From assembly GCA_963575745.1 (NCBI GenBank), contig CAUYUJ010000303.1:124001-188000 (forward strand): a DNA stretch of 64,000 bases, read 5' to 3'. The position numbers and the translations under genes are program-made. The DNA is from Prorocentrum cordatum. Taxonomy: Eukaryota. How positions within the stretch are numbered: the stretch's first letter is position 1; each line of letters begins with the position of its first letter. Positions 11,590 to 47,492 of this stretch are shown piece after piece. The notes beneath the pieces were generated by a model. The model did no database searches. It was given only the letters and a program-made list of their open reading frames with translations, and was not told where the DNA came from.

Positions 11590-12065
11590 AGATTGTGATG
11601 ATTACGATGTTGATGGTGATGGTGATGGCGATGGTGGTGGCGATGAGGATTAGGATGGTGATAATGATGGCGATGATGATGCGGATGATGATAATGATGA
11701 TGATGAGGATGATTGATGATGATGGTGATGATGATGAGGATGTTGATGATGCTGATGCTGATAATGATGGTGATCACGATGACGGCGACATGACGATGAA
11801 AACGGCGATGATGATGATGATTATGATGCTGGGTATTATGATGATGGTGATGATGGTAGTGGCGACGGTAATGGTGATGGTGATGATAGTGAGGAAAAGT
11901 ATGATGATTATGATGGTGATGATGACGATGGTCATAGTGATGAAGATGGTGATGATGTTGATGCTGATGATGCCGATGATGATTAATATGAGGACGCGGA
12001 TGAAGGCGGTGATACTACACACAATGAAGATGCTGCTGATGATGATGGTGGTCATGGCGCTGACG
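11590..12065. repeat. Imperfect (ATG)n microsatellite; similar tracts at 15560-15990 (CAT), 23930-24510 and 28970-29075
   Basis: Directly visible. Confidence 0.9.
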
Positions 12066-12224
12066 ATGCTCCAGCTGCCGCACCGTTAACCCTTCCTCGC
12101 TCCGCCTTCTCCCCTCTGTCCGATGTTTCTCCTCCCCAGTTTCTTGTCCCGTTCCGTCCTCCTCCGCCTCCTCCTCCTCCTCCTCGAGCCTCGTATACTC
12201 TTTGCGTGGCATCCCCCCATGCTG

Positions 12225-12695
12225 AGAGGCTGTGACTCCGTCCCCGACTTCTCGAGCTACCCCCTGGAGTGGGCATCGAGGCCCAACAAGGAGCACTTGA
12301 AGGCGCGGAGCCGCCTTGCAAGTATAGCCAGGAGGGGTATGTCAGGGGATCGCGAACGTATAACCATCAGAGGATAGGGGGATAGCGGGGGTAGAGCAGA
12401 CTCGATCTTACTCGCCATCACCCTCCAATCAATCCATCTCCAATTCCCTCCCCATGCATGTCGAGCCGTGCCCTACCTCCTCGATGTCCGCCTCCCTCAT
12501 CCGCGAAGGCCTGGGACACCCTGTGCAGGCAGCTCCACGAGATCGGCGAAGGCAGGAGGTTCAGCCAGACGTGCATGGAGGCGCGGACGTGCACAAGAGA
12601 GGGAGAAGAGAAGTAGAGAGAGTCAGGTAAAGGGGGGGCGGAGGGAGGTGAAGCTGCAATCTATGTCAATGTTGCGTTGTTATGTGGTTGGCGGA

Positions 12696-12733
<38 letters not shown>

Positions 12734-12941
12734 CCCAACAGAGAGTAAGAGAGAGAGAGAGAGAGTGGGAGAGAGAGATTGCTGCGCGTGTCTCTCTCAG
12801 ATCTCTCACGCTACCGCTCCGACCCAACCTGGAACAGTCTGCCAGCGCTTGGCGCTTATTCCCAATATAGTTGAAGTTCATGCTTCCCCCGATTCCTCTC
12901 GCGAGCGACAGAGAGAGAGAGAGAGAGAGGGAGAGACACGC

Positions 12942-12981
<40 letters not shown>

Positions 12982-15324
12982 AGAGAGAGAGAGAGGGAGA
13001 GAGAGCGAGAGAGAGGGAGAGAGACAGAGACAGAGAGACTAGGGGGAGAGACAGAGAAAGAGAGAGTGAGAGTGAGAGTGAGAGTGCGAGTGAGAGAGGC
13101 GCCCCCTCTCACCGCATCCCCACTCATCACTCCCTGGTGCGGGTGCATCTGCCTGTTCCTAGATCTTTGTAAGCGAGAAGATGTTGTCTATGAGCATGGT
13201 TATGCTCCGTCTCGATATCCGTTTCTTTCTGGTAGGTCTCCATATCAAGCGCGTCGGTGTATTCGTCCATACTTATACATATATATATGTGTATATATAA
13301 TGCAGTTGTACATGTATACACATGTGTGTTTGTTTAGGGATGCGTTATGTGAGCATTTGCCCATCGGTTTCCCTCCAGGAGGCTTGGACCACCGCGTTCG
13401 AGGATCGGGTGAAGGAGCACATCGCCAAGAAGATGATGGAGAAGGACCCCGCCAGTGTCGGCCAGAAGAGAGGCCCGAAGGTGAAGATGGATGGACATCG
13501 GTACCCTGGGGGTCAGGCTGAGGATGAGGATGAGGATGCAGACGGTGTGGGTTCACGCTGTCGAGGGCGGGTCGGGGCACGAAGGATGTGAAGGTTGAAT
13601 TTTCGGGGTCGGGCGGGGGAGGAGACCTCAGAGAAGCATGAGCATGAACATGTCTGTTCACTAAGTGGACCTGGTGACATCAGAGACGGTGGAGAAGGGC
13701 CGACGGGAAAACAGACCGCCTACATGTGTGCATGCACGTGTATACAGACGTACACGCACCCATGTAGGCGGGATGTTTTCCCGTTTCGCTCCGGACGACC
13801 CATATCGGAGCCTCCGCACCCGAAGGTACTTACAATCGCGGGCTGCTCGGAAGATCTTCACCCACTGGCAGAAGCTGAACGGCCACCTCCAGTCGCCGCT
13901 GCGCTCGAAGGCAGACGAGGAGACCCAGGACCGAAGCAGGGAGGGATGCCAGCTAGGGGAGGTGGTTCTGATAGGAGTGACCATGACGAGGGGGCCCTTG
14001 ACAGGAATCGGGAGGACGAGGATGAGGATGATGAGCGTCATGTAGGAGGGTGTTCACATGCATTCCTGTTCGTGCGCGGCTGTGCGGTGGCATCTTTGAT
14101 TGTCCTCGTCGGGCCCCCATCGTAGTGGAATCCACTTCACAATCAGAGGTGCCTGTTGATTGCTACGTCATGTTGGTTGTTACGTCCTACACTCGTGCAA
14201 ACATCGGCCTCAACTTGTTTTCGCATATGCTGTTTATCATGCCATATTTCTGCGGTGTAGCATCGTTTCCCGATTCGTTCATCAAGCAGCCTACACCTAG
14301 GCGCCCCGATATATTAGCCTTGGCCCCGCCCCCCCACCAGGACGGCGAGCCCGACTCCAAGACCATCGACGACGACGACGAGGACATCTGCGAGAACCAG
14401 AAGGCTGAGATCTACAAGGCCATGCTCGAGGACGACAGCGACCTCGAGGGGGGGAGGGGCAGAGGAGTCGCAGGGAGAGGGTGAAAGGAACAGTGGGCAG
14501 CACAGGGCATGATGGGGGGAGGATGGGCAAAGTCGGAGGGCCTGGGAAGGCATGGGGTGGATGGAGGAGGGTGTGCATGTACCAATACGCGCACACATGT
14601 GTGCATATATATATATATATATATTAACCTATACATCTATATCAATATATGGATACATGTCTATGGGTATCCATGTGTATGCATGCATCTGTATACACAC
14701 AAACATACACATATATGTGTGAACATATAAACTGTATGTCGTGAGAGGCGGGTAGAGGGTTGGAGGTCGCGGGAGGCAGGTTGCAATGCGCGTAGCTTCG
14801 GACACACGTTCACCATGTCGGCCCCCCATCTCCCCCGATTGGCTTCCGAGGGAAGCGGAGGATCTCGCCAACGCGACGTCAAGCTCAGCGGCGGCGGCAT
14901 CGGGGATGGCTTCGTGTCCAGGCGCTTCTCAGACGAGGGTCGCGGTTCAGAAATCAGCACACCCCCTCTTGCAAAGCCTGATGAAAAAGGAGAAGACGGC
15001 GAAGCAAATGAAAAACAAAGAAAAAAACACGACAATGAGAAGCGCAACAACATCGCCACTCCAGTACCGATGGGTGCCCTCACTGCCGCTGCCCCGAAGT
15101 CGACCACGAAACCACTGAAAGGTCACCCGTCCTCTGCCGAGGCTTTCGAGGAGACGCCGACTAAGCTTGCCCCGAAGGCGGGCTCGACCCCGAAGACTAC
15201 CCCGAAGGCGACCCCGAAGGCGACCCCGAAGGCGACCAGCCCAGCGGCCGTGGTGCCGATGAAGCGGCCAGCTGGGATCGCGAAGAGGCCTGCGAAGAAG
15301 CAGGCGAACTGGTATGCACCCTGA
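12225..15324 (+). CDS. Multi-exon cargo gene 1 (unknown product, Lys/Pro/Ala-rich basic C-terminus); 5' end uncertain, may be degraded
   Basis: Exon-like blocks bounded by AG acceptors and GC/GT-type donors: CDSVPDFSSYPLEWASRPNKEHLK; EAWTTAFEDRVKEHIAKKMMEKDP; DDPYRSLRTRRYLQSR; DGEPDSKTIDDDDEDICENQ; and a final exon ending TPKATPKATSPAAVVPMKRPAGIAKRPAKKQANWYAP*. Confidence 0.6.
12695..13095. repeat. (GA)n microsatellite tracts; others at 37555, 43605-43686, 47280-47532, 48850-48936, 49120, 49395 and 53950-54165
   Basis: Directly visible. Confidence 0.9.
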
Positions 15325-15995
15325 AATGTCTCGACGCAGCATGCCCTAACCATTAGATCGATGCTGCACGTGTTCGAAATTCGGGGTATCCTTCTCATCG
15401 GGGGTGGGGCAGTGCATAGCAATGTGAGTCGGTGAGTTGTCACGCCTCGCCTCTTCGTATCTTAGCACTCGGCCTGCTGGGCCCAACGCTCACGCGTTGA
15501 AGACCCCACCCCAACGCCCCCCCTCTTCATCAACGTCCGTCGCCTCATATTGCCCTTGCCGTTCCCATCATCATCTCGTTGTCTTGGCTATCATCGCAGT
15601 CGTGTCCGTCGCCATCATCATATCGATCACCATCGTCACCATCCCTAACGTCATCAGCATCAGCACCATCAACAGCATCATCAGCAACATCACCATCACC
15701 ATCACCATCACCATCACTATCACCAGCATAATCACCAACCACATCTTCGCCGCCACCAGCATCACCGTCATCCTAACTATCATCAACATCATCATCATCA
15801 TCAGCAGCAGCAGCAGCCGCAACAGCATCAGCGTCATGATCATCACCATCATCAACATCATACGCACCAACATCTCACAACCAGAATCAGCAGCATCATC
15901 ATCAGCCTCCATATCATCAGCAGCAGCGTCATCATGATCACCAGGGGTATCATCATGGCCACCATGACCACCATCACCACCACCATCATCAGCGC

Positions 15996-17730
15996 ATGGC
16001 CTGCAAGGCGAGCGCCGAGGCCGAGCCGCCAGAGGTGGAAGACGCTGCGCAGGAAGCCGCAGTTGAGGAGAAGGAGGAAGGGGAGGAGGAGGAGGAAGAG
16101 GAGGAGGAGTGGGCGGGCGACCCCGAGGGCATGGCCGTGGACGATGCCGTTGAGGCCGAACCCGAGGAAGGCGAAGCCGATGCTGAGGAGCGCCCCGACG
16201 CTGAGGACGGCGAAGCCGAGGCTGAGGAAGGCGAAGCCGAGGCTGTGGTCGAGGACCCTGACCCCGAGGCAGCCGAGGTCGTTGCCAACGACGAAGGCGA
16301 GGAGGAGGAGGAGGAGAAAGCATGCGAGGAGGATATCGATACGGTCAAGGAGCTCGGCATCGCCGAGCCTGCAGCGCTGAAGGTGATGTGGCCCCGAGGT
16401 GAGATCCCGAGCAGGTTGCTGGACGGCTACGTCGAGCACGACAACGTGAGGTACCATCTGAGGACGAGGCGCAGGAACAGCGAGGGCTACAGCATACTGG
16501 AGCATGTGACCGTGGACGCCGAGGGCAACAAGCTGACGCCGAGCTACAAGCAGTTCCTCCAGGTGTCTGACAAGACGTGGCTGGTCCCAGACGACTGCCG
16601 TCGCCAGAACAGCGACATACTGTCGCAGGCGCCTCTATTTCATTACGCGCCACCGTTGAGGTAGGAGGGGGAGGCAAACATGAAAACTAAATGCATGAGG
16701 ATTGGGGGAACGGAAATGCCGAGGGAGGTGGATGACGAGGTACAGCTCCCACTGCCCTGCTCCTCCTCCCCGCCCCCCGCGCAATTCCTCCTGCTCCCTG
16801 GTGCCCCTTCCTGTTGTCCTTCTTCCGTTGCTGGCGCCATCGCCCATCGCCCCTAGATCACCGTGTCGGGTCGGCGCGCGCCCGCCTCGACATAGCATGC
16901 GCCCTATCTAACAGATGGTCCTCGCCAAGTGCATCGACGACCAGACCATCAAGAAGGAGTACGCCATCGGCAGGAGGAACGAGTTTCTGGAGATGACAGG
17001 CCGCGACATCTTACTCAGTCGGTGCTTCGAGGTCGATTAGGATCGGACGGGGGGCGTAGCTCGCATGCCGGAGGGGGGGATGGCAGCTCGACGCATCGGA
17101 CAGTCCATGCATGCAAGGCGTGGGCACGCAGGCGCGTGCCCCACTCGATTCGGTAGATGTTGTAGTTTGAGAGCGAGGGGGAGGGAGGGCGATGCTTAAG
17201 AGCGGTAAGAGAGAATGGAACCACGTCGAGCGAGCACGGGAGCGGATGAGAGAGAGCGAGAGGGAGAGAGACTGCGGGAAAGTGAGAGAGATAATATATC
17301 GAGACATGGGCTGACAGGTGTCTATACATATGTATATAGAAAGAGGGGCTGCGATCTGTATACATACATACATACATACATACATACATACGTGCATACA
17401 TATATACATTCAGACATACATACATACGTACATATATACATGCATACATACAGGTGTGCGTACATAGATGTCGATATATACATATATATATATATATGTA
17501 TAGGCATATGCACAACTACACGTTTACAAGACAGACGCGCAGAGGGAGAGGGACATATGGATAGAGCGATCTACACAACAAACCACAATACACATATATA
17601 CATATATATATGTTTATATCGAGAGAAGACACCACCATACGAAGAACTACACGGCTGCATCCATGGCGAACGAGCGTTCCATGTGTTTGAAAAGCATTGT
17701 GTCGAGCAATTCCTTGGACACATCGGGTGA
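15996..17730 (+). CDS. Multi-exon cargo gene 2 (acidic N-terminus, unknown product)
   Basis: First exon 15996 to about 16628 (MACKASAEAEP...QNSDILSQ) ending at a GC donor; exon at about 16914-16999 (MVLAKCIDDQTIKKEYAIGRRNEFLEMT); probable last exon ...PYEELHGCIHGERAFHVFEKHCVEQFLGHIG*. Confidence 0.6.
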
Positions 17731-19569
17731 GGGGCAATGTTGTTAAATCCCTGTCTGACTGTCTGGGGTTTGGGTTGGGGACCTCGGTTGACGGGGGCGG
17801 GTGTGTTTTGCGAACCCCCTGGGGCAATAAGGAGAGCCCGCGGATCCATATAGGGGTGGATGCGCGTCGGAAGATAGCCCGAGCGAGAGCAGAGGGGGAA
17901 TGCTGGGCAGGGGCGTCTCGCTGAACATCTGCCTGTCGATCTACTTCGGCGGCGTCTTTGAGAGGGGGCCCATTATCGCCCGAGCCCCCGCTGCTTTTTG
18001 ACAGATCGAGTGCCGACGTCACTCACGACAAAAACATATGTACATGAGCTTGGCTGGCAATTGCAACGCCGTGCCCCCTGGGCGCCCCAACCCCCGCCAC
18101 GACGCCCATGCGTCGATGTATCGACTGACCCCCGTGAGCGATTCGGAGCCCTCGGTGTGGTTCAGGCTACTCCAATATCCCCTCCCCTCCCGATGCCCTC
18201 CGAACAAGACCCGTCTGCCTCATCCAATGTTCCGTGCCCTCGTCCGACCCTGCCCCTCCCGCGCCGCACTTTGCGCAGGCGCGCGCTGCTCAAGCGCGCA
18301 ACTGTGCGAGCCAGATCGGTGCCACCACCACCCCAGCTCCGCGCACGTGGAGTGCGCGACTCCTCTTTGGTGAACGGGGTGACACCTATATAAAACATAT
18401 GTAGGTATATCTATATATATACACATGAAGAACTAAATACATAAACCTATTCATATGTTTGTATGTCCGTATGCATGTGTGTACGTATGTACGTACGTAT
18501 AAGGCGGTATGGATACGCAGGTGCAGGTGCCAATGTTTATGAACATGCACGTGCGTATGTATATGTATAAGTTTACGTAGTTGTATGCGTAACGTTGTAC
18601 ATATGCATGTGCCTGGTTGTTCGTCCGTGTTTACACCGTACATGCTTACTTGGATAAGCATGGTGTGTGTTTATATGTATGTATACATAGGTATGTGTGT
18701 GTGCGTGCTCTGGCGGGTTCGCGCATCTATCTGCAACCACCTGCGTGCACATCGCGTCGACGCAGCGCTGCAACATGCGCGCGCGCGTGGCACGCGCGCG
18801 TTGCCCATGTACGCGGCGCACAAATTGTATACGATGTACATGTTGCGGGTCAAGTCTGCTCAGCCCCTCCCCCACCGACGTCCCAAATAACCCCCTCACC
18901 AATGCCCCTGCACGCGCCGCCGCCCACCCAGTCCCGCCCCCGCCCCCTGCCCCCCGTCGAACCCAGCTAGCCCCCCCTCGAACACCAAGCCCTCTAGCAT
19001 TAAGCGTTCAAACGTGTACTAGGTGTAGGTTGGCGTGGGAGGCGCGCGCGGGGGGGGGGAACACGCTCGGATGTGGGTGTGGGGGGGGGGGGGGGGGGGG
19101 GGGGGGGCGCGTGCATGTGGCCCCCGCCCGTAGCCGAGGTGCTGGCGAAGATCTTCGGCGACAGCGCAACGACGTGGTGATCTCCAGCGGCTACGCAGTA
19201 CAACACCCACGCAGGCGGTCGAACGGCTGCGGGTTGTGGAGGCGGCCGAACGCAATTCGCGTTGGGGGGGGGGGGGGGCTGCGCGGGGTGGCCACTAGGG
19301 TCGCGTGGGCGCATGGCGGCGGCGCGCGCAGCTGCAGTGGCGCATCGTTGGGGCTGCACGCGCAACTCCAATCATGCGCCCACGCAGCTGCGCGTGCCCC
19401 GCGACGCGCCCCCCGACCCCCGAGGCCACTTCGCCGTGCCTCACCTGACGCGCGCTGCGCGTGGCCGCCTCCGCGATCGCGCAAGCGTTGCCGTGTTTTT
19501 TTGTTGCTGTTCTCATGCGAATCATGTTGGTTCCATGCGTTTCAACGTTCAGATTTGTTTCTGATGTCT

Positions 19570-20775
19570 CACGCGTTGTCATGTGTTTTCATGTGTTTTC
19601 ATGTGTTGTCATGTGTTTTCATGTGGTTTCATGTGTTTCGATGTTCCTGTGTTTTCATGTGTTTTCAAGTGTTGTCATGTGCTTTCATGTGTTTTCATGT
19701 GTTCTCATGTGTTTTCATGTGTTCCGATGTTCCTGTGTTTTCATGTGTTTTCATGTGTTTTCATGTGTTGTCATGTGTTGTCATGTGTTTTCATGTGTTG
19801 TCATGTGTTTTCATGTGTTGTCATGTGTTGTCATGTGTTTTCATGTGTTTTCGCGTGTTTTCATGTGTTTTCATGGGTTCGCATGTTCCTGTGTTTTCAT
19901 GTGTTTTCACGTGTTGTCATGTGTTGTCATGTGTTTTCATGTGTTTTCATGTGTTGTCATGTGTTTTCATGTGTTGTCATGTGTTTTCATGTGTTGTCAT
20001 GTGTTTTCATGTGTTTTCATGTGTTTTCATTTGTTTTCACGTGTTTGTATGTTCCTGTGTTTTCATGTGTTTTCATGTGTTCTCATGTGTTCTCATGTGT
20101 TTTCATGTGTTTTCATGTGTTGTCATGTGTTTTCATGTGTTGTCATGTGTTTTCATGTGTTGTCATGTGTCTTCATGTGTTTTCATGTGTTGTCATGTGT
20201 TGTCATGTGTTTTCATGTGTTGTCATGTGTTTTCATGTGTTGCCATGTGTTTTCATGTGTTGTCATGTGTTTTCATGTGTTTTCATGTGTTTTCATGTGT
20301 TTGCATGTTCCTGTGTTTTCATGTGTTTTCATGTGTTGTCATGTGTGTTCATGTGTTTTCATGTGTTTTCATGTGTTGTCATGTGTTTTCATGTGCTGTC
20401 ATGTGTTTTCATGTGTTGTCATGTGTTGGCATGTGTTTTCATGTTTTTTCATGTGTTTGCATGTTCCTGTGTTTTCAAGTGTTTTCATGTGTTTTCATGT
20501 GTTTTCATGTGTTGTCATGTGTTTTCATGTGTTGTCATGTGTTTTCATGTGTTGTCATGTGTTTTCATGTGTTGTCATGTGTTTTCATGTGTTGTCATGT
20601 GTTTTCATGTGTTGTCATGTGTTTTCATGTGTTGTCATGTGTTTTCATGTGTTGTCATGTGTGTTTTCCTGTGTTTTCCTGTGTTGTCATGTGTTTGTAT
20701 GTTCCTGTGGTTTCATGTGGTTTCATGTGTTTTCATGTGTTTTCATGTGTTTTCATGTGTTCTCACGTGTTTGCA
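19570..20775. repeat. 10-bp minisatellite CATGTGTTTT/CATGTGTTGT, about 1.2 kb
   Basis: Directly visible; it produces the Cys/Val/Phe pseudo-ORFs in the track. Confidence 0.97.
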
Positions 20776-21209
20776 TTGTTCCACATCCGCGTGCACTTAA
20801 GTGCACCCCGACGCCGCCCTTGCCATGTTGTGTTGTTTGCGTGTGCGTTCGTAGTTTTTTTTTATGTATACGTACATATAGGAAAGAAGAAAAAAAAGGC
20901 GGCGCGCAGGGGGAGGGGGGGGGAATGCCCCCGCTTGGAGCAGTTCGCGCGCTTGCGCCAGGCGTGCCCCGAGCGGTCCTGTCGCCTGTCGGAGCTGCCC
21001 CCCCCCCGCCCGCCCCCCGCGCGCGCGCCACGTGCGTGCCCGCGCGTAGCCTGCGCGCGAGTGCATGTGCATACTTGATTTGACGGACGCGCGCGCAAGT
21101 ACACTTGGGCGACTACGCGTGCGCATACCCGAGTGTGCGTGCACGTGTGCGCATATATGGGCGTGCAGACATGCAAAGGCAATGTGCGTATTGTACGTAC
21201 ACATATAGT

Positions 21210-21510
21210 GTTCATACATACACGTATACATACATACATACATACATACATGCATGCATACATACATACCTACATACATAGCTACATACATAGATACATA
21301 CATACATACATACATACATACATGCATACCTGCGTACATACATACATACATACATACATACATACATACATCCATACCTACCTACCTACCTACATACATA
21401 CATACATATATACATATATACATACATACATACATACATACATGCATACATGCATACCTGCGCACATACATACATACATACATACATACATGCATACATA
21501 CATGCATAAA
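21210..21510. repeat. (CATA)n microsatellite; also at 11245-11340 and 17360-17450
   Basis: Directly visible. Confidence 0.95.
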
Positions 21511-21806
21511 CAAATATACATGGCTGAACATATGTATATAGACATCTATACGTGTGTATGTGTATATATAAAAATATATGCGTACATGTATAGTGTATAC
21601 AGCTATACATCACGCCATGCGTGACCCCCGGAACCCGCGACCAAGGTCGGACGGCCGTTCTGGTAAAACCCCACCCATCCCACACCCCGAACCCCTCCTG
21701 AAAGTAGCCGCCAACGCGGCCCGTACCCCCAAGTCGCAGGCACATTCGGTCCTTGCCTGTTCAGATCCGTCCGGTGCATTGGATGGGGCGGGGGCCCAGG
21801 TGACGG

Positions 21807-24800
21807 ATGCCGCCCAAGAAGGAGAAGAACAAAAAGGTCCGATCAGATCTTTAAATTGGGACGCACGCGTGCGTCCACGCATATACACGTTCACACATGT
21901 GTGAACGTGCGTGTATGCGTGGACGCACGCGTGCGTCCCAAAGATCTGATCGGACCTTTTTGAAGGCCACGGACCGCACCAGCACGGCAGCAAAAGAGAA
22001 GAGAAAGGACAAGTCGTCTCATGAAAATGCGATGGCCAAGATGAGGCACCTTGGGTGTGTAAACCACGGGAACGACACACACAGACACGCAGTTTTGACA
22101 TCTTGGTTCCTTCTGATTTCTCACGTTGGGTTCTGGAGGGGTGGTCGCGGGCGCGATGGCCCCGATCGTACCCTGAGGTACCACGTGGAGAAGACGCGGC
22201 CCGAGTTGAAGAGACAGTTCAAGCGTCTCAACCGCGAGAAGAAAAAATAATGGTTGAAAAAATGGATGGCCGAAGGCCGCGACAGGGCAGACTTGGGACA
22301 ACAGTGCACAACATAACATGGACTGGCAAGTATGAGAGATGAGGAAGTAGAGGAGGAAACAGCGCGGGAGGGAGAAACACATTTGAGGGAAGAGGAAGCA
22401 GGAGGAAGGAGGGGTAGGGTGAGTAGGACGTAGGAGGGAGGAGGTGTAGGGCGAATAGGAAGCAGGAGGAAGTAAGAGGAATGAGGGGAAATATTGAGTT
22501 GTGACGGCCGACGATGACGTACCCTTCCTCCCCGCATGCCAGGCGATTTCGACTGGGTGAAGTCCGAGAAGAAGGAGTCAATGTACAGCGACGGGGGCCA
22601 GGGGACCCGCGGGCGCTGGTACACCAAGGACGATTTGTCGCGCATGTTCGGGTGGGACAATTCCGCGCCCACCTCCGACATGAGCGTGAGGATGCGCTGT
22701 TTGTTTCGGGGGGGAGGGGGAAGGGAAGCTAGAACTGATGAGGGGTGCACTCGAGATGTCGCACTCCGTTCGTCCTGTTTCCATTTGTCCTGTTGCTGCT
22801 TCGGCCGTGCCAGCGGCGCTTCAGATGCTTGGCGCGCACGCCCCCCTCGAGGTCCCAGCTGTTATGCCCATAGCTTGTCATCTTAAGTCAGCGAGCCCCA
22901 CGTTCGCCGACAGCCCCCCCCCCCCGTGAAGGGTAAAGTATCTCCTGCTGATTTCGAATGGACGCCTCCCCTCAATTCAGCCCCCCCTCCGACTATGATC
23001 TAACTACTCCGCTCGCAGGGCCGAGCAGCGCGCCCTGGCGCAGATCGCCACGTGCGAGCAGTTCAAACGCACTCGCGTGAAGGAGGGGCGGGGAGATGCT
23101 CTCATCATCGTCACAAGTGTTATCGATCCGATCCGAGTCCATAGATGGATCGATTCATTCCGAGTTGGACTACGATGGGGGGATAACGAGCGTCGGCGGC
23201 GCCGACGATCACTCATTGGAAAATCGGGGCAGGTCGACCCCGACCACGGAGACGTGATGTACAAGCGCTACGATGACGAGGAGTTTGACACGCAGGCCGT
23301 GCCTTGCGATTGCTCTTACGTTCCTTTCCCCACCCGCCCTGCATCGCCCCCTCCTACTATACTGCGCATGGAAACCACTTGCTACACACCAAGGCCGTTG
23401 CCATAACCCTGTGTACATGCAGATTGCTTGCCGTGCTGCGCGGCACGCACATCCCCCTGCTAAGCCGATGTGCCGTGCGACGTGGCTGCTGTGAGTGAGC
23501 GAGTGGCATGTCTCCACTTCTTCCTCCCACCTTCCCTCTGCGCCGCTGCTCGGGCCCACGCGCAAGCTCGAGCGCTGCGCCCTCCCCCGCAGGGCAAGCG
23601 CAAAGAGATCTCGACCACCATGGGCACCGACAAGCAGGCGCTCGACAAGCGCCAGAAGGCTATGGTCAAGGCCAGCGGGCCAGGAGGGGAGGGAAGGAGA
23701 GTCGCAGGAAACTGGTGAGAAGGATAGTGCACGCGAGCATAAGGAGGACCGGGGTAATGCAGAGTCGGCAAAAGGTAATGATAGCGATGATGAGGGTAAT
23801 GGCGAAGGGGCTGGGGGGAATCAGGGAGATACACCAGCATCATGAGCGGCAGCAGGGTGAGTGGGATGCCGATGCGGGAGGACTCGTGATGAAGATGGCG
23901 AGGTTTGAGCTTACTGCCATTGGGGAGTGATGGTGCTATGATGGTGCTGCTGCTGAGGATGATGGTGATGATGAGGCGGAGTAGGAGGAGATGGAGGAGG
24001 ATGCGGAGGAAATGAGGATGAAGATGGGCATGCTGATGTTGATGATGATGGTGATGGCGATGGTGATGATGATGCTCACCATGATGATGAGGATGACGAT
24101 GACGATGCTGATGATGATAACGAGGATGCTTATGACGATGGCGATGATGATGATGATGCTAGCAACAATAACGATGCTGATGATGATGTTGGTGATGCTG
24201 ATTATGCTGATGCTGATGATGACAATGATGGTGGTCGTGATGCTGATGCTGATGATAGTGGTGATGGTGATGGCGATGGTGATTGCGATGATGACGATGA
24301 TGATGATTATGATTATGGTGATGATGCAGATGGTGATGTTGATGATGCGCCTGCGTCACCAAATATGTGGCTTTTCAAACGCGTGGATGCCGACTGATGT
24401 CCTGAGGGGCAACGGCGATACTGAGTGTGATGACGACAGCGGTGCTGATGATGCTGCTGATGACTATGCAGATGAAGATGGCGGTGGTGCTGGTGTTGAT
24501 GATGATGCGGATGCATGTGGTTGGTCTATTCGGATGACGCGGGGCAGGACGCACAAACAAACCATCATTGCAGCTGCGAGGCCGAGAGCGACAGCGACGA
24601 TGACGAGTCGGGCAGCAGCTACAGCTACACGTCGGAGGACCGACGCCAGGGTTGCTCGGTCGGCAGCTCCTCCCGATCACCCCACACACATACACAAACA
24701 CGCACGCACACACACACCACACAATTATATAGATGTACGTATATACAAACACCTAAAGATTATACATGCATATATGAACATGTGAATCTACACGTGTATG

Positions 24801-25848
24801 CATGTGTAAACAAAAAAACGTATATCTTAATCTACCTAAATGTATGCACATATGCATGCACGTCCGTGCGTGCCACGCCTGGTGCCCTCAACCCATCTTC
24901 TAATGCATGACCATCATTCCCGATCCCATCACCATCAACTCCTGTCCCCACCCCCACCCTCCCCCATCGCCTCCACGTGGATCCGTCTCGGTGCTCCCGC
25001 CCCCTCCCCCGCCCCCCAGTCGCGCCCTGCCGCGCCGCTCTCATCTCAACATTTCCCTCCCTCAAATGTGTATGTTCCCTGTCACCCCTGCTGCCCCATG
25101 CAACCGTCATCCGGGCGTCCCCATCCCAGGAACAGGCGGCTGCGGGTGCTGCGCCTTCAAACCCAGCGACTGCCAAGCTGGGCGAGCTTGTCAATGTGCT
25201 GGCTATCTTGCAGGGCTGGAAGGCCCCTCCTGGGAGGGAGGTTGTGTTAACGTCAGTAAGCACTAGTTCAGAGTTCTTCACTCGGCCCTCGCGTTGACTT
25301 GCTCGTTGAGCGGGGGCAAGCAGGAGACAGGAGGAACACATCAACTGTGCGAGCGCTTCGGGCAGCAATGCCCCTGCTTGCGCGCTCGTGTCATGCTTGG
25401 CAGGCGGCGGACCACGCCTGGCTCAAGCACTGGGACACCCCGCTCAAGGAGTCCATCAAGAACCTGATGATATACGAGAAGGTCCTGAAAGAGATGGCAC
25501 AGGGCGGGTCGTCCAGCGCTGCGACGGCGATGGAGGAGAGATGATGACGAGGACACGCAGGTGGCATGAGGCTTGAAGGGTTCAAGGAAGGAGGGGAACT
25601 GATCGAGGGAGGGAGGGCTCGGGCGGGGGAGGAACGCAGAGGCATGCATGGGGGCGACATCCAGGTACCCCGAGATAGCATGATCGCCTCAGTCTGCACC
25701 CCTCGCGAATTGAAATCGGCGAGTCAGGTCTTCGAAGGAGTTCCCCACAGCCTGCACGGCGATCGAGGACGCAACGAAGCTGCACGGCAACCTCGTGCCG
25801 ATCATGCAGTCCGTGGCGGCGGCGCTCGAGAGCGCTAAGAAGAAGTAG
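21807..25848 (+). pseudogene. Multi-exon cargo gene 3 (about 10-11 short exons, charged protein), with apparent in-frame stops near 22248 and 25711
   Basis: Reconstructed exons: MPPKKEKNKK | ATDRTSTAAK...AKMR | YHVEKTRPELKRQFK | DFDWVKSEKKES...RWYTKDDL | AEQRALAQIATC | VDPDHGDVMYKRYDDEEFDTQ | GKRKEISTT | ... | AADHAWLKHWDTPLKE | ...ALESAKKK*. Confidence 0.65.
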
Positions 25849-26699
25849 GGGCAGGCCGCAGGTTGCCCCCAGGATTTGAACGCAGAGCGTACGTTGTCGC
25901 TCAAGAGGTTACCCCTAGGATCGAACCATGTCGGTTCAAGAAATTTCTAGGTTTTGACCGCGGTTCGGCATCTGACCCTGGAAATGAGCTCTGCGTTCTG
26001 GCCCAGCACCCGCCTCGGGAAGGAGGCTGCGCTTTTCTTTCAGCGTCACAATGCTGCCTGCCCCTCTCGTTATACAGGTTTTCTTACCCATGAATCCTGG
26101 GGGCGTCGCCGTGTCCAGAGAGGGGGGCCCACACCCATCCCTTGAAGTAGATGCAGCGGCATTGTGATGCGCCGTAGTTTGAACGGCGCATGCGGCTTGT
26201 GGATACGATCGACAAGCGTGTCGCAGCGATAGTGGAAAAGATTGTGCGAGCCCGGCGGGTATTGCGATAATGAGTTGGTCATGTTGTTTGTATCACGTGC
26301 ATTGTGATTTGCGAGGCGCGGGGTCATCCACATCCACCGCCTGAGGAACCGACCTCCGCTGAGACGGGCGATGGACGTCCACGCATGTGAAGAACGGTCG
26401 GTTTCCCAGGCGGTGGCTGCTGATGCACCCCGTCCTCGGCGTCCTCGGATTCATGATACTTAGTTCCATGCACGGTACAGTTGCGACAACATGTTGCACG
26501 CCAGAAGTGTTCGGTGAGTTTCCCGCCCCAGCGCTGGGTCGGCTCCTGTCGATTCCTCCTGGCTCCCCCGTGCCCTCTACGAGAAGCGGCGGCGGGGTGG
26601 TGATCGTCTGGTCCAGCGCAGTTTCTGCTTCACGTGCCATCGCCTCGAGCCACGCTCGCAGATCGAGCCCCCGCCCATCCAAAGTGAGTGTCTCTCGGC

Positions 26700-28958
26700 A
26701 TGGCTGGGCGAGCCGCTGGCGAGGGTATATTGCTTGAGGTGGGCAGCGGGCTCTCTGCGCCATCGAGGTCGCGCGTTCCCGAGTCTCGAGCTCCCAGGCC
26801 TGATGGGGGCGCAGGGCTGAGACGCTACTTGCTTTCGAAGTACAGGAGTGGGCACATGACGGCGAAGGACGTGTGCAGTATAGCATTATATTCGTCGGCT
26901 GCTGGATCTCAGGGAGTGTCTGATTTGGCCCGGAGCCCAGATAATCGGCACCACACGGGGCATTTGAGACGTGTAGTGGATGCTGCGACCAAGGACAAAG
27001 CAAGGAGAAAAAAACACTCACCCTTATCATCGTCCCCTTTACTACCCGCTTCCCACTTTCACTCTCCGCCCTCCCCGTTCCACTTACCTCCTCTCGTACT
27101 GGTGGATATGGATATGGGTGGGCTGTCGTTTTCTCCACAGGACTCGTTCTACACAGCTGAAATCCCCATGTGGGACTCTGAATGCGAGGAGCGTCGGCTC
27201 CGCAAGTTCCCCTTCAGTCTTCCACACGAGCGTTTCGCTGCAGAGTTCGAGAAGAACCCCAGTGATTTCGACGTCGCCAAGGCGCGGAGATGGCACGCAT
27301 AATTCTGACCATACGGCCTCCTGGGGCCAGTTTGTTTTGGGCGGGCGGCAGTGGGGGCAGCGTTGTTTAAGCGAATCCATGAGGTGGCCTCGGGTGTGTT
27401 TTGGTGTGGTGTGGGATTATGCGTGCCGCCTCAGATAGAGCAGCACGATCTGCCCAGCACGTACGCGAACCACCCCGTGACCTTGGAGCACGGGTGCAAG
27501 TCGTTCCCGATCGGCTATTTTTCAGACGGTGTTCCACACACTAAGAACGATAGTTTCATAGCACACTATTGGAATAACATGTATACTGCGCGCAGATATC
27601 TTATCTGCGCCGTCCGAAAGAAGGACCTATGTAGATGTGGGTGTAAGGGCTGGTGTACTTTCAGAGGGATTTTACGCGTGATCGTTTGGAGCATGCAGGC
27701 GTTAGCATCTGGCCTTCATCCCGAGTTTGATCACAATGGGTACCCGTTCACAGATCAGGCGCGCTGGGCCCACCGTGGGTTCGAGATTGCCGAGGGCGCT
27801 CGGGCTGCCCTCTGCGAATACAGGGCGGACCTACTGGAAATGACCGCCCTGCTCGGCTTCAAGACGCGGCAGAACCCGACCACGCCCTGCCTGGCATGCC
27901 GCACCACGCGCGCGGACATGTTCAACTTCCCTGTGAGCATGAACCGCTGCCGCTGGGCACAGAGAGATAATGCAGACTATACCAGAAGCGTTCTAGCTGC
28001 CATGACACAGCGGATGGTGGCCGATCCAGACCAACTCCAACGACTAGTATCCAAGATGGCCCACGGTGAAGTTCACGGGGGGTTTGCGCTGACAGAACCA
28101 TTTCCCGAGTTGCAGTTGCTGGCTGGTCATAGGGTTGTCGAGGGCGAGGTTGTCCAGGACATTGCTACCATAGCAGACCTCCCCACTCCAATTATGCTTA
28201 CTTTTTTTTACTCGAAGACTGATGTTGGCATCAACTTAGTGTGCTCCCTGTTTAAGATCAGGGGGTTTGGAGTGGAGAGCATCCATTTAGATGGCATGCA
28301 CATACTAGATTTAGGCGTTGCTCAATACCTAGCGGGCCTCGTGCTGCACACACTTATAAGAGGTAAGTTCGCCCAGTCGTCGGCCTCCAGAGAGGAGGCG
28401 CGGCACGCTGCAAACATGCGGCACCTTCGCCGCAGAATGAAAGTATTTTATAACATGAGACGGGTTCACAAGAATAACTTGTCGCGCATCCAGCATCTTC
28501 ACTGGAAACAAATTAAAGGAGACCCGCCAATATTAAAGGCCAAGGCGGCACAGACGCGACTACTAGTGCCATTGCTTCCAACACTGTGCAGGGAATACAA
28601 GCGATTTCTCGGCCACAAGGGCCACCACTTGCACATGGCTTGCACTGCGCTTGCCGAAGTGTACAGTACTATACAACGAGCTCGCGGCCGAACGATGTCT
28701 GATGTCGAATACAATACCATGGCCAATGCCACTATACGTTTTCTTAAGTTATGGCAGTTGTGTGAAGGACACCAGGTATAAAAACACCATGGTTTTTTTG
28801 ATTTAATCCGTAGGGCGAAAGACCACGGGAACCCAGCCAAGTACTGGTGCTACGCAGACGAAAGCATGAACAGATGTATGGGGACCGTGGCCAAAGCTCT
28901 GCATCACGGTCCAAATTTTTACTTTGCGTTCCTGCAGCGCATCCTTATAGAGCTATGA
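26700..28958 (+). pseudogene. CMC/EnSpm-like DDE transposase in three exons (26700-26993, 27141-27281, 27435-28958), with a premature TAA at 28779-28781
   Basis: Motifs GYFSDGVP, YRADLLE, PCLAC, LDGMHILDLGV and KAAQTR. After the stop the frame continues KHHGFFDL...HGNPAKYWCYADESMN, matching the EnSpm/Tnp2-type C-terminal catalytic Glu region. Introns are GA-AG and GC-AG. Confidence 0.8.
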
Positions 28959-29329
28959 TCGGGCGCCGCATCGTGACCATGATCACCCGCATTACACCCA
29001 CCACCGTGATCATCATTATCGTCATCACCATCATCGCCAGCATCATCATTATCATCATCACCATTTAACACCATCATATGTATTCAATGAAATGTATGCG
29101 GTGCCCCGTAGCTCCGTTTCACACGCCCTGTAGCACGGTTTCACACGCATGCCAATTTGCAGGCCGACTTGAGGCTTGAACGTGCGATTGACGTAGAACA
29201 CCCCAAGGAGAATACGCATTCCTACGTGCATGTACGTGTGTGCGCTGGCACACTAAATGCCGATGTCCCCTCTTGCTCCCACGTACTCCTCTTCTGTTCT
29301 ATGTCCTCGTTCCCCTCATGATCTTCCTC

Positions 29330-29625
29330 CACCCCCCCCCTCCTCCTCCTCCTCCTCCTCCTCCTCCTCCTCCTCTTCCTCCTCTTCCTCCTCCTCCTCC
29401 TCCTCCTCCTCCTCCTCCTCCCTCCGCCGCCTCCTTTTCGTCGTCCTCCCCCTCCTCCCCCTCCTCCCCCTCCTCCTTCTCCTCCTCCTCCTCCTCCTCC
29501 TCCTCCTCCCCCTCCTCTTCCTTTCCTTCCTCCTCTTCCACCTCTTCCTCCTCCTCCTCCTCCTCCGCTTTCCTCCTCCTCCTCCTCCTCCTCCCCCTCC
29601 TCTTCCTTTTCCCCCTCCTCCTCCT
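29330..29625. repeat. (CCT)n polypyrimidine tract
   Basis: Directly visible. Confidence 0.95.
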
Positions 29626-30143
29626 GCGTATTTTCCCACTGGGGTGCTATTCGACGTCGATGGCTCTGCGTGAGTTTCACCTACGCGCAGCAGGGATATC
29701 TGCGCAGGAGCCCGAGTAAAGCTCGATCCGCCGAGGGTGCCCTGGACAAAGTCGCCGCGCGAGGTGGGGCAGCTCATGCAATGTTGCCTGCGCCTGTGAC
29801 CGTCCCTTGTCTTCTCACCAATTCATTCTTCTGCTCCACCTATTCGCTCTTCTGCTCCATGGAAATAAGGGAGGAGGAACGACAAGGGAAAAACAGGAGG
29901 ACGAGACAAATAAGGGAGGAGGAACAACAGGGGAAAAACAGGAGGACGAAACATAAAAACAGGAAGGGCACGGAACAGGAGAGGAAGGGGAACAAATAAT
30001 TACTTACATGTGAATGGCTTTTCTGGGAATTAGCGTTCGTGAATTGGTTGTTCCGAATTGAATGGCTTTTCTTGAATTGAATCGGTTGATTTCTCATGCA
30101 AGTGCGCATGCTCCAATTTTTCTCATGCGCCCAGATCTGTGGG

Positions 30144-30668: not shown

Positions 30669-30693
30669 AGCTTGCAGTAGCATGTGGTAGCAC

Positions 30694-33600
30694 TCAAAGC
30701 CCGCCAGCAGGACCGCGAGGAAGGCCTGCACCCAGGCGACGCCGCCGATGGCGTCGTAGATGCCCTGCCTCCCGGGGGCCCGCGCCGGCCGCAGCGCGCG
30801 TGGGGCGTGCCGTGGGGTGGGGTCTCGCTGTAGTTGCCGTTCCGGCCAGGGCGCCGGCCTGCGGGCGGCGGCGTGCGTCTGCCGCGGGCCGCCGCCAGCG
30901 CCGCCGAGGCGGCCGTGCAGGCCGGCGCGCGCCCCCGCGGGGGCCGGGCCGGGCGTGCCAGGAGGACCGCGCAGGCGAGCAGCACCGGGGGCCAGCCTCC
31001 GGCTCCAGGGCTGTCGGGCTGCGGGTGCCGCCCTCGCCTCCACCTCCTCCTCTTCCTCCTCCTCCAGCAGCAGGATGGGTGTGCCTCCTCCTCTGCCTCC
31101 TCCTCTCCAGCCTCCTCTGCCTCCTCTGCCTCCTCCTCCTCTGCCTCCTCCACTGCCTCCTCTGCCTCCTCCTCCTCCTCCCCCTCCTCCTCTGCCTCCT
31201 CATCAGCGCGCTCCTCGGAGATACTGCACGATCGGGCCATCGTCCGTGTGGAGCACACCGAACCGCACGCCAGGGACGGTGACGGCCTGGACGGCCGCGG
31301 GGGCATCCAGGAAGGCCGGCTGCACCCGCAACGAGTACACGATGATGAATACCCAGGGCCTGTCGGCCATCGGGTCCTCGTGGCGCGGCTTGAAGCGGAA
31401 GAGGGACGCGTCGACCTCTGCAGCCGGCGTCGCGGCGAGGTCGGTGGCAGCCTGCTTGCCCGGGTCGGCCTCCTGCAGCTTGCCCGCCGTCCACTCGCAT
31501 ATCGCCTTGAAGAGCATGCTGCGCTGGCTGCCCATGGGATGCGGGGGCAAGGGGCCGTCGGCTGGCTGCTGCTCCTTGCGGTCCTTGTCGGCCTGGCGCC
31601 AGGCGCTCCGCAGCTCCCACACCTCGTCGATGAGCTCCTCGTCCTTGAGCACCACCAAGGCGCCGACGCGGTCGGTGTGCATGTTGAGCTCCCGCTCGTG
31701 GCTGATGCCGAGGGCGACCAGCGCTTCCACGACCTCCTCCATGGGGCCGGGGAGCCCGCGGCCGCGGCCGGCGCCTCGCCCCTTGCCGCCGTGCCCCTTG
31801 CCCTTGCCGCCGCCTGCGCCCTGGCCGCCGCCGCCGCCTCCTCGCCTGCGGCCGCCCTTGGCGCCGCCCTTGCCGGCTGGCCGGGCCGCGCCGCCGCCGG
31901 GGGCAGCGGGGGCGGGGGCAGCAGCGGGAGCGCCGCCAGCAGCGCCAGCAGCGGCAGCAGCCGCCCGGGGCGCAGCGGGGGCCGGCAGGGCCAGCCGCCC
32001 GGCGGGGGCGGGCGCAGCGGGGTCTGGCAGGGCCAGCTGCCCGGCGGCCTGCGGCATGGCGGCATCTCCTGCCGCCGCGGCCGCGGCCGGCGCGGGCGCC
32101 TCCCGCGGCAAGCCGCGGGGCTGCACGCGCCGGCGCGCCGGCACCTCCCCGCGAACCTGCTCCGCGCCCCCGGCCCGCTGGCGGCGCGCCGCCACGGCCG
32201 CGCGCGCAGCTGCGAGCCCGTCCGCGGCCCCGGCTCCCCCGCCAGTTGCAGCCATGGACGGCCGCCCCTGCCGGTCCGACCCTGGGGAGACCAGCTGCGG
32301 CACGGCGGAGATCGCATTGCACCTTGCGCGCGGCGACGGCGCGGAGGGAGGGCCAGGGATGTGCGCAGGAAGGGCACGCGTACGACCAGGTCTGCCGTTC
32401 TGCGTCCGTGTTTTTCCTGGCCACTTTGCGCATGACCGCGCCGAGCCACACTCGGAAGGGAGCTGCACGACAATATGCCCAGGGACTGTTGTGCTTACCG
32501 CCACAGAATGCGCACCCGGAGCCGTCTTTCAGGTAGGGCGCAAGCTCGTCGCCAGTGGCGTAAGCATGGGGGCCTCCTCTTCCTCCTCCCTCCTCTATGC
32601 CGCCTCCCTCGCCCTCGATGCCGCCTCCCTCGCCACCTCCTCTTCCTCCTCCTCCTCTACCTCCTCCTCTGCCTCCTCTGCCTCCTCCTGCTGCTGCCGC
32701 CGGAGCGACAAGGTGGGTGGCGTGGCGCTCCTGCCGCCTGCGTGCCTGGTTCCTGGGCTCAAGCCCCAGGCGCCGTGCGCCCCAGGCGCCCCGGCCTCCA
32801 GCTCCGCCAGCGTAGGCGTCGTCCACGTGAGGGGCCGGCGGCGGAGCAGGCGGCGCCGCGGGAGGCGGCTGCTTGCCCCGGAGGCGCCGGCGGGCGGGCG
32901 CCGCAGGAGCGGGCGGCGGGGGTGGCTGCTGCTGTTGCGCCTTGCGGCGGTCTGGGCGGATCCGCATGCCGTCCTGCTGTCCGTCGACAAAACGTGGCGC
33001 GAGACGGCCAGCCGGCGGCGGGGTGCCGTCGCAGGTCCGAAGATGATTGCCCAGTTTCGCGCACCAGACCCCGCAGCGGGGGCAGCGTTGCTCGCCGGTG
33101 CGGGGGCATCTCTGCGCGCCCTGCAATTCGGCTCTGTAGGCGGTGGCGCTCTCAGAGTGTCTGTTGGCCCAAGTGTCGGCGTCACACCGCTGGCGCTCGT
33201 GCCACACCAAGGTGTCGGAGAGGCGTTTCCACTCACGCCGGTCGCGTGCGACCTCCATCCAGCGCACGGGCCATTCCTCCTCTGGCATGCCTGTGAGGCC
33301 CATGACGCTGACGATCCGCTTCCAGTAAGTGTCCCTGAGCGTGGGGCAACGGGAAGCCAGGGACCCGGCACCCTCCTGAGCTTCCGGGGGCGGAGCGAGC
33401 CACAGGCCTAGCTTGTGCTGCTCGAGGCGATCGTTGGGGTAGCGGGCGAGGTGTCCGAGGTACCCTAGCTGCCGTTTCAGCACCTGCACCGGGACGGCGT
33501 CGATCCCGGCCTCGATCCTCAGGTCTGTACTGGTGCACGCGCCCTCCATGGCGCGGGTGCCGCCTCGACGTCGATCAAAGGTGATGCCGCGGATGACCCG

Positions 33601-36606: not shown

Positions 36607-36952
36607 CGACGCCTCAGCGGCGCGCAGCCCCGCGGGGCCCGGCGCAGCCGATGAAGGCGAAGAGGTGGGTCAGCTCGCTGAGAGCTTGCAGTAGCACGTA
36701 AACTTCGAGAACACTTCGGACTCGGCTTCTACTTTTTGGGCCACCTTTTTTTTTTTGTTTCTTCATGGCCTGGAGCATCTGGACGGCCCTGCGGACTCGG
36801 TTGGCGCGGGTCGCCGCCGCGCCCCGCTCACCCGCGCCGGTGGCGAGGACCAGCAGGAGCAGACCGGCGCGCATGGCTGCGGAGACTGCGGCGGCTACAA
36901 TGGGGCACTGCAGCGCGGTGGGATGGCCCGTGGGGGCTTGGCTCGAGATTGC

Positions 36953-36973
36953 CTTGAGCCAAAATGGCTACGG
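36953..36973 (-). other. Dinoflagellate spliced-leader (DinoSL) sequence
   Basis: The minus strand reads CCGTAGCCATTTTGGCTCAAG, an exact match to nt 2-22 of DCCGTAGCCATTTTGGCTCAAG. Confidence 0.95.
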
Positions 36974-43601: not shown

Positions 43602-43689
<88 letters not shown>

Positions 43690-46600: not shown

Positions 46601-46870
46601 GCCTCGGCCGAAGTCGGCGGGGTCGAGCACCTTGCCCTCGGCGTTCGCCTTCGCTCGGCGCTCAGCTGCGGCTGCGAGGCGTTCCTTCTCGGCCTGATCC
46701 GTCTCGAGCCTCTTGTGCTCGAGATCCTTGAAGAAATTGCTCTTGGCCTCCTCGGACAAGTGAGGCGAGGCTCGAGGCTTCTCGCGGGAGGTCGGAGTGT
46801 CCGCCGGGCTCGGACTTGAAAGGCCCCACAAGCTCGACAAGCTTGACTGCCGCTTGACAGGCGTGCTCAT
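41079..46870 (-). pseudogene. pogo-family (DDE_1) transposase fused to a Ulp1-like (peptidase C48) domain; exons 46870-44736, 42966-42175 and 42005-41079; 1-nt frameshift near 42608
   Basis: CENP-B-like HTH region (LEAWFKRERMCGHEV); DDE_1 motifs VVDATAPW, DKYRLT, WGQPRAWTD, LVFADC and PDVTSFLQEPDTHEHSQLK. The last exon has MHYTY, YRDSL and DGWSCGLW (His-Asp-Cys triad). Two GC-AG introns join the frames. Confidence 0.78.
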
Positions 46871-47289: not shown

Positions 47290-47376
<87 letters not shown>

Positions 47377-47393
47377 GGAGAGAGGGAGGGAGG

Positions 47394-47486
<93 letters not shown>

Positions 47487-47492
47487 AAAAAG

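Follow-up and report, generated by a model that had tools for sequence, protein, structure and literature searches.

Hairpin-closed introns, probably of introner type, in a putative RAG1/Transib-like transposase gene of the dinoflagellate Prorocentrum cordatum

The DNA analysed here is a 64-kb stretch of the Prorocentrum cordatum assembly (contig CAUYUJ010000303.1, positions 124,001 to 188,000), hereafter the window, numbered from its first nucleotide. It is repeat-rich eukaryotic DNA with a GC content of 42-74% in 2-kb bins and it carries a transposase gene whose coding sequence is interrupted by two introns, T1 and T2, the ends of which are complementary to each other. A 21-nt motif, which we take to be the dinoflagellate spliced leader, was matched at 21 of 21 positions at 36953-36973 on the reverse strand (0 matches in 100 shuffles), and introns of the region use GT, GC or GA donors at AG|G junctions. 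Together, these features identify the window as dinoflagellate nuclear DNA.

The three exons of the transposase gene were delineated by tblastn with related proteins (Table 1). Among the 34 homologs of the open reading frame (ORF) are proteins from metagenomes and others from transcriptomes with the labels Pyramimonas sp. and Alexandrium andersonii. No relatives were found in the viral contig and genome contig collections. Pfam returned no match for ORF 27351-28781 and the upstream pieces, and no transposase family among 18 family members. An AlphaFold (AF2) model calculated from an 18-sequence alignment (mean predicted local distance difference test score, pLDDT, of 85.4) found its best solved-structure matches with Foldseek in the RAG1 core recombinase (E-value of 5.5e-4 and TM-score of 0.37-0.42 over ~460 columns); an Atlas comparison yielded no more than a weak lead to Plavaka. 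The family has invariant D, C and H residues, among them those of the motifs CxCxC...C and DxMHxxDLG. Since the model best matches the RAG1 core, transposase is a reasonable name for a protein with a predicted RAG1/Transib-like fold, a likeness that does not settle family membership. The sequence encoded by 27435-28778 (forward strand) may represent a superfamily, RAG1/Transib-like or CMC-like, that has not been described before and occurs widely among marine protists. Exon 3 contains an in-frame TAA at 28779-28781, where homologs carry Y or H, and the natural stop is the TGA at 28956-28958; the window gene is probably a decaying copy, a pseudogene. The closest relative, P0001, and several related loci carry frameshifts. 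No terminal inverted repeats of the transposon itself were detected between 25801-26700 and 28901-29700.

The full-length homologs P0005 and P0007 align in one frame to 26688/26802-28955 with exactly two large gaps, located at 26994-27140 (T1, 147 nt) and 27282-27434 (T2, 153 nt). The definition of both introns rests on these gaps and is independent of any inverted repeat. Joining the flanking sequence at GA..AG boundaries for T1 and GC..AG boundaries for T2, both in phase 0, restores the residue spacing of the homologs, which demonstrates two insertions together with their positions and phases. A preliminary description of this DNA, made from the sequence alone, had reported a 15/17 stem at the ends of T2 and stems at the ends of T1 with its GA donor, and both are borne out. 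The outer arms of T2 form 15 Watson-Crick pairs, one G.U pair and one mismatch across 17 positions, and in the minimum free energy (MFE) structure T2 is a single hairpin extending from nt 6 to nt 151 of its 153 nt. In T1, GGAGAAAA (27004-27011) pairs with TTTTCTCC (27129-27136) and an inner stem is formed by CACTCACCC and GGGTGGG; in the MFE fold, nt 11-30 are paired to nt 114-143 and enclose a loop rich in pyrimidines. The sequence leads us to infer splicing of T1 and T2, their origin by insertion and a possible contribution of the stems to splicing.

End pairing was measured as the duplex between the first 35 and the last 35 nt of an intron and compared with 500 dinucleotide shuffles, and the whole-intron MFE was compared with 300. 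The end duplex of T1 has a z-score of -6.0 and is reached by 0/500 shuffles, with an MFE z-score of -3.2 (1/300), while T2 displays a duplex energy of -41.4 kcal/mol (z-score of -5.3, 0/500) and an MFE of -72.7 kcal/mol (z-score of -3.9, 0/300). When 5' ends were paired with the 3' ends of other introns (182 mismatched pairs), 1.6% reached the T1 energy and 0% that of T2. Among 699 random 150-nt intervals of the window, four fell at a z-score of -4.5 or below, all in a CATG satellite at 19.5-20.8 kb, and the strongest interval elsewhere was T2 itself. Perfect inverted repeats (IRs) of at least 8 nt occur in 2.1% of 5000 random intervals. In the comparison of pairing energies proposed in the preliminary description, both T1 and T2 thus exceed shuffled sequences and random intervals of the window. 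A duplex-energy scan of the whole window (76,525 overlapping tests) yielded ~25 intervals at a z-score of -5 or below. Three of these are located inside a reverse-transcriptase ORF and none of the three is an insertion relative to homologs, so that scan intervals near a z-score of -5 can be chance extremes; a genome-wide excess of hairpins is not claimed.

A scan of metagenome contigs for relatives of the transposase retrieved 25 loci. One of them, L010, displays two insertions, L010_i1 and L010_i2, at the same codon positions and in the same phases as T1 and T2, and with donors of matching type (GA/GA and GC/GC). Each of the two folds along its full length into a hairpin (MFE z-scores of -5.7 and -8.1; duplex z-scores of -5.9 and -5.4; 0/500 shuffles), which demonstrates hairpin introns at identical positions in a diverged copy. 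In all four introns (T1, T2, L010_i1 and L010_i2), the base of the helix is at most 12 nt from the donor and at most 4 nt from the acceptor. An insertion at another position in locus L001, L001_i, is also a hairpin, with an MFE z-score of -5.3 (1146-1231) or -4.9 (1156-1231); its exact borders are uncertain, and with the alternative 1156-1231 the duplex is reached by 1/500 shuffles, compared with 0/500 for each of T1, T2, L010_i1, L010_i2 and L001_i in its longer form. The insertions L008_i1, L008_i2 and L007_i are not hairpins, and the N-terminal regions of L002, L003 and L005 are free of introns. Overall, five of the eight homology-defined insertions in the transposase family are significant hairpins.

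The exons of the window gene and L010 overlap by 160 aligned codons, with 54% protein identity and proportions of nonsynonymous (pN) and synonymous (pS) differences of 0.31 and 0.76, respectively. These values indicate that silent sites are saturated and that the protein was under purifying selection; since this selection acted on the flanking exons, the interrupted gene was presumably expressed with its insertions removed. With 140 and 139 nt, neither L010 insertion has a length divisible by three, and both had to be removed. The arms of orthologous introns present no similarity between the window and L010 (alignment z-scores of 0.1, -0.2, 1.2 and -0.4), whereas the two arms within each copy remain complementary (z-scores of 2.3, 5.4, 10.2 and 10.2). 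Because complementarity between arms exceeds similarity between orthologs, neutral decay of a single ancestral palindrome is rejected. These observations argue that the hairpin was maintained, or regenerated, at orthologous positions through complete sequence turnover, which would leave three explanations: selection on pairing, a DNA-level process that homogenises the arms or re-creates them through template switching, and insertions that occurred independently at the same sites. The hairpins kept at orthologous positions despite this turnover lend some indirect support to a structural role of the stems. MAFFT/RNAalifold alignments of the two ortholog intron pairs are meaningless and column-wise covariation is not countable; one stem can be aligned by hand, GGAGAAAA/TTTTCTCC in the window and GGCAAAAA/TTTTTGCT in L010, and it contains two double-sided changes. 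In P0001, the ORF starts inside the counterpart of T2 and the translation resembles that of the window, with ~10 identical residues.

Table 1. Position of the transposase exons, the introns and the hairpins.
Feature	Sequence	Position	Strand	Characteristics
Transposase exon 1	Window	26688..26993	+	tblastn of P0005, P0007 and P0009; 5' limit uncertain, homolog alignments start at 26688-26802
Intron T1	Window	26994..27140	+	147 nt, GA..AG, phase 0; flanking direct repeat AGGAC; perfect IR of 8 nt
T1 5' arm	Window	27004..27023	+	GGAGAAAA then ACACTCACCC; MFE structure
T1 3' arm	Window	27114..27136	+	GGGTGGG.CTGT then TTTTCTCC; stops 4 nt short of intron end; MFE structure
Transposase exon 2	Window	27141..27281	+	tblastn, translation
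Intron T2	Window	27282..27434	+	153 nt, GC..AG, phase 0; holds stop codons; perfect IR of 12 nt
T2 outer 5' arm	Window	27287..27303	+	GAGATGGCACGCATAAT; sequence, MFE structure
T2 outer 3' arm	Window	27416..27432	+	ATTATGCGTGCCGCCTC; stops 2 nt short of intron end; sequence, MFE structure
Transposase exon 3	Window	27435..28958	+	tblastn, AF2 model, Foldseek
L010_i1	L010	549-688		140 nt, GA..AG; 3' end CCACAG as in T1
L010_i2	L010	830-968		139 nt, GC..AG
Stand-alone hairpin	Window	13703..13784	+	37-nt arms, 86% complementary; duplex z-score of -6.3, 0/500 shuffles
Putative intron	Window	21837..21965	+	GT..AG, phase 0; near-perfect palindrome; in an unverified small basic ORF, frame closes across it
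Hairpin	Window	26312..26438	+	43-nt arms, 77% complementary; ~250 nt upstream of the transposase ORF
Weaker hairpin (tentative)	Window	28950..29114	+	Spans transposase stop and start of 3' flank; z-score of -6.3 in the multiple-testing scan

Introns with comparable ends have been described in related organisms. For Amoebophrya, end-joining IRs of 8-20 nt and boundary direct repeats of 3-5 nt are reported in 11-30% of the non-canonical introns and in 1-15% of the canonical ones, and the hairpins predicted for these introner elements join the exon boundaries without a family-specific repeat motif (PMC7789003). The same definition, which operationally asks for two repeats no more than 30 nt from the intron ends, an IR of 8-20 nt and a direct repeat of 3-5 nt, has also been used for free-living dinoflagellates, Prorocentrum cordatum among them (10.1101/2022.07.25.501386). 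Perfect IRs of at least 8 nt are present in T1 (8 nt), T2 (12 nt) and the putative intron 21837-21965 (16 nt), while L010_i1 (7 nt) and L010_i2 (5 nt) attain this length only if imperfect arms are allowed. Boundary direct repeats were identified in T1 (AGGAC), 21837-21965 (AAGG), L010_i1 (AGGA) and L010_i2 (CAGGC), with only AG in T2; part of these repeats (AGG) is automatic in an AG|G splice context. T1 and 21837-21965 thus resemble dinoflagellate introner elements in the IR and, tentatively, in the direct repeat, and T2 in the IR only. In contrast with those elements, pairing here spans nearly the whole intron, with arms of ~45-60 nt rather than ends of 8-20 nt, and the host gene is a transposase. 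The diverged copy, moreover, keeps the hairpin with unrelated sequence, a point not met in the accessible part of that literature.

In the introner-like elements of Symbiodiniaceae and Polarella glacialis, IRs are reported to end at the 3' splice site, and a 4-nt direct repeat, GHNN, provides the 5' splice site; GA donors are described as typical of recent intron gains and GC donors of older ones, and CT at +5/+6 was reported for the Symbiodinium elements (10.1101/2020.10.14.339549). Comparison of the first four intron bases with the following exon bases revealed GHNN-type repeats in T1 (GACA/GACT), L010_i2 (GCCA/GCAA) and L008_i1 (GACC/GATC), each matching at 3/4 positions, while L010_i1 matches at 2/4 and T2 at 0/4. 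The T2 IR, which reaches the last intron base (16/19 positions, by eye), is similar to that of these elements, and the T1 repeat may correspond to theirs; T2 differs from them by the lack of a target site duplication (TSD), and T1 in that its IR stops 4 nt short of the 3' end. The +5/+6 bases are GG in T2 and AA in T1, and only L010_i2 presents CC, distinct from the Symbiodinium type. T1 and T2 are probably a new instance of the described introner class and not a new mechanism.

Euglenid nonconventional introns are reported to display end pairing similar to that of terminal inverted repeats and TSD-like repeats at their junctions, with a proposed origin from miniature inverted-repeat transposable elements; their borders are non-canonical and pyrimidine|purine, a short CAG/CTG pairing links +4..+6 with -8..-6, and excision releases them as circles (PMC11282704). 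Pairing is predicted to bring the ends of T1 and T2 together as well, but their borders are G[A/C]..AG and the host carries a dinoflagellate spliced leader. A euglenid origin or intron class was dropped in view of the GA..AG and GC..AG borders and the spliced-leader match in the window. SOS splicing, reported in C. elegans and human cells, is signalled by pairing of inverted terminal repeats in the mRNA irrespective of their sequence; excision is heterogeneous, rarely GU-AG, and leaves indels, and the insertions are exonic (PMC12779559). This contrasts with the transposase gene, where restoring the protein takes one precise junction, in phase and with an AG acceptor. In mirtrons, a short intron folds along its full length into one hairpin, and the two splice sites lie at the foot of it. 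The introns described here share that arrangement, although their hairpins, at 76-153 nt, are longer than is typical and the stems begin 5-12 nt inside the donor.

The preliminary description had gone further, proposing that introns of transposon genes throughout 12300-27434 are repeatedly closed by such stems. Between 21837 and 27434, 3/11 delimitable candidate introns have significant end pairing and 8/11 have none, which makes the word repeatedly too strong, and the suggested transposon genes in 12300-26000 are ORFs with no detectable homologs and no similarity to the flanks of the related transposase loci. In particular, no homologs were found for ORF 22536-22886 among longer proteins, for ORF 15996-16661 among 1.84 billion representatives, or for the ORFs around the hairpin 13703-13784, and tblastx of 12001-26600 against the 25 related loci gave no match. 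The exon models in 12300-25850 rest on reading frames, GC content at third codon positions and AG|G junctions only, and for several of them the phases can be closed only if alternative GA/GC donors are assumed. Of the individual examples that had been listed, the 12305/12524 pair is present in the sequence at chance level (z-score of -1.6, equalled by 37/500 shuffles), and the 22046/22170 pair likewise does not exceed chance (duplex z-score of +0.4, 314/500 shuffles; MFE z-score of +0.3). At 13703-13784 the hairpin itself is confirmed, but it could not be tied to splice sites: its 3' edge lacks an AG, and the best frame-compatible intron around it, 13481/13483-13826, has unpaired ends (z-scores of -0.1 to -0.2). 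Nearby, 13930-14340 is a putative GA..AG intron flanked by the 7-nt direct repeat CCAGGAC, with an AG|GAC junction of the same type as T1, and it includes a sub-terminal hairpin at 13969-14145 (scan z-score of -4.1). The statement that stems differ from intron to intron holds, as blastn revealed no cross-matches among the introns.

A near-perfect 133-nt palindrome at 21830-21962, absent from the preliminary description, comprises arms of 23 nt (100%) and 31 nt (97%). The putative intron that it occupies (21837-21965; MFE z-score of -18, duplex z-score of -10.4) begins within the palindrome, which extends 7 nt into the upstream exon. Further palindromes at 48228-48478, 38754-38878 and 61977-62084 (MFE of -193, -109 and -77 kcal/mol, respectively) are outside any verifiable gene. 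Only the strongest palindromes, 13703-13784, 21830-21962, 26312-26438, 38754-38878, 48228-48478 and 61977-62084, are certainly real, and they establish that palindromes also occur where no intron is demonstrable.

Repeats are abundant elsewhere in the window. One reverse-transcriptase element is present in three copies on the reverse strand (979-4362, 4981-10441 and 30669-36148), two of which are 97% identical across 5.5 kb; no indel corresponding to presence or absence of a hairpin was found between these two. The spliced-leader match is located ~280 nt upstream of the reverse-transcriptase ORF 30694-36669 (reverse strand, RVT_1) and may be a retroposition relic of a trans-spliced transcript or may derive from a spliced-leader-capped retroelement RNA. 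A 10-bp satellite with units CATGTGTTTT/CATGTGTTGT occupies ~1.3 kb at 19480-20780 and, because CATG is self-complementary, gives spurious hairpin scores. Arrays of a 32-bp repeat (TTTCGCTTGAGACATCCTC...) are distributed within 40270-58750, at ~40.3, 43.0, 44.2, 47.1, 50.5, 55.8 and 57.7-58.7 kb. Long poly-G/poly-C runs are located at 19070-19110 and 19260-19280 and also in the related metagenome locus L010 (1130-1242).

Taken as a whole, this dinoflagellate window probably contains a degenerate RAG1/Transib-like DNA transposon whose transposase gene is cut by two introner-type, hairpin-closed introns. T1 (GA..AG) and T2 (GC..AG) would be introner elements derived from insertions, bounded by short direct repeats and carrying inverted repeats at their termini. 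In the pre-mRNA the two arms would pair, converting almost the whole intron into one hairpin and placing the donor, 5-12 nt from the helix base, side by side with the acceptor AG, 2-4 nt from it; a spliceosome that accepts GT, GC and GA donors could then remove the hairpin. Two readings had been offered in the preliminary description. An introner or hairpin-generating origin fits the evidence and the literature, whereas the idea that stems rescue weak GC and GA donors starts from a wrong premise, since these donors are standard and efficiently spliced in dinoflagellates: a median splicing efficiency above 99% is reported, and GC is possibly the preferred boundary (10.1101/2020.10.14.339549).

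Several observations weigh against the interpretation as introner-type introns closed by a pre-mRNA hairpin. Sense and antisense strands fold equally well in 5/6 hairpins, T2 being the sole asymmetric case (sense -72.7 kcal/mol with 17 G.U pairs, antisense -43.5 kcal/mol with 1 G.U pair); complementarity is thus that of a DNA-level palindrome and does not point specifically to selection on RNA. A blastn comparison of the intron sequences with the window and the 25 related loci detected no second copy, and mobility, as of a repeated introner family, is therefore not demonstrated. T2 has no direct repeat, and CT at +5/+6 is present in none of the window introns. End pairing was also absent from all eight putative introns modelled from reading frames within 22046-25750 (z-scores of -1.0 to +1.4), and is thus not general in the locus. 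Finally, T1 is in frame and free of stop codons, which makes read-through possible in the window copy, and the in-frame TAA suggests that this copy may be dead.

That death could go further, the intervals being disruptive palindromic insertions in dead transposon copies and not introns, with incidental end pairing. The stop in the window copy and the frameshifts in P0001 and several loci are what such an account expects, but pN is far below pS in the exons flanking both insertions in two diverged copies, the L010 insertions of 140 and 139 nt would break the frame, and the G[A/C]..AG boundaries lie in the AG|G context of dinoflagellate introns, which makes this account very improbable. If the intervals are introns, their shared positions in the window and L010 might reflect independent insertions of different introners at the same preferred sites, with nothing maintained. 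Intron gain in dinoflagellates is reported at about one per kb per unit dS and at constrained target motifs, AGGH and GHNN (10.1101/2020.10.14.339549), and the two intron pairs do lack sequence similarity. Both L010 introns, however, coincide with T1 and T2 by codon, phase and donor, T1 and L010_i1 share the 3' end CCACAG, the overlapping 160 codons hold no further introns, and the P0001 ORF that starts inside the T2 counterpart with a similar translation points to inheritance. Independent insertion is accordingly regarded as quite unlikely.

Two further accounts differ in the level at which pairing matters. The hairpin may be functionally required and kept by selection, with end pairing forming part of intron recognition or excision and arms that co-evolve through compensatory changes, either in structure-assisted spliceosomal splicing or in a pathway like euglenid nonconventional or animal SOS splicing; we consider this possible but doubtful. 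Identical codon positions, phases and donor types persist between the window and L010 at saturated silent sites (pS of 0.76), and dissimilar orthologous arms that are complementary within each copy are a pattern that neutral decay cannot give; the two double-sided changes in the hand-aligned stem and the far better fold of T2 as sense RNA point the same way. Yet there are only two ortholog pairs, unalignable for column-wise covariation, 5/6 hairpins show no strand asymmetry, 3/8 family introns and 8/8 neighbouring putative introns have no stem, and all donor classes are reported to be efficiently spliced (10.1101/2020.10.14.339549). Alternatively, a mutational process acting on DNA, such as template switching or fold-back repair at quasi-palindromes, or inverted duplication at breaks, would make and keep the hairpins with no role for RNA, introns being the only place in the gene where they are tolerated. 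Cases in which template switching generates and preserves RNA hairpins have been documented (10.1101/2021.04.15.439925). Palindromes with Watson-Crick symmetry fold equally on both strands, as 5/6 do here, and equally strong palindromes lie outside demonstrable introns (13703-13784, 26312-26438, 38754-38878, 48228-48478 and 61977-62084). The 7-nt extension of 21830-21962 into an exon is also what local inverted duplication predicts, unlike a pre-formed element with a TSD. This process leaves unexplained the placement of the helix base next to both splice sites in 4/4 introns and the GHNN-type direct repeats, and arms that are 77-88% complementary are not the near-perfect ones predicted by recent homogenisation; it is judged unlikely.

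Introner-type introns are the best current model for the bulk origin of new introns, and their presence within a transposase gene indicates that intron gain also affects the mobile elements themselves. The most interesting residue of the analysis is the hairpins kept at orthologous intron positions through complete sequence turnover. The two diverged copies provide a handle on whether the terminal repeats of introners are mere insertion scars or are kept for use in splicing, and the transposase family, with many paralogs and fixed intron positions, would be suited to a direct test of covariation given a genome and RNA data for the source organism. It is a tentative and, at present, improbable proposal that the end hairpin of dinoflagellate introner-type introns is a maintained, sequence-independent recognition feature rather than a decaying relic of insertion, and that excision depends on it. 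If true, excision would depend on RNA structure, through a spliceosome aided at GA and GC donors or through an SOS- or euglenid-like pathway, and a transposon's own transposase gene would rely on structure-dependent excision.

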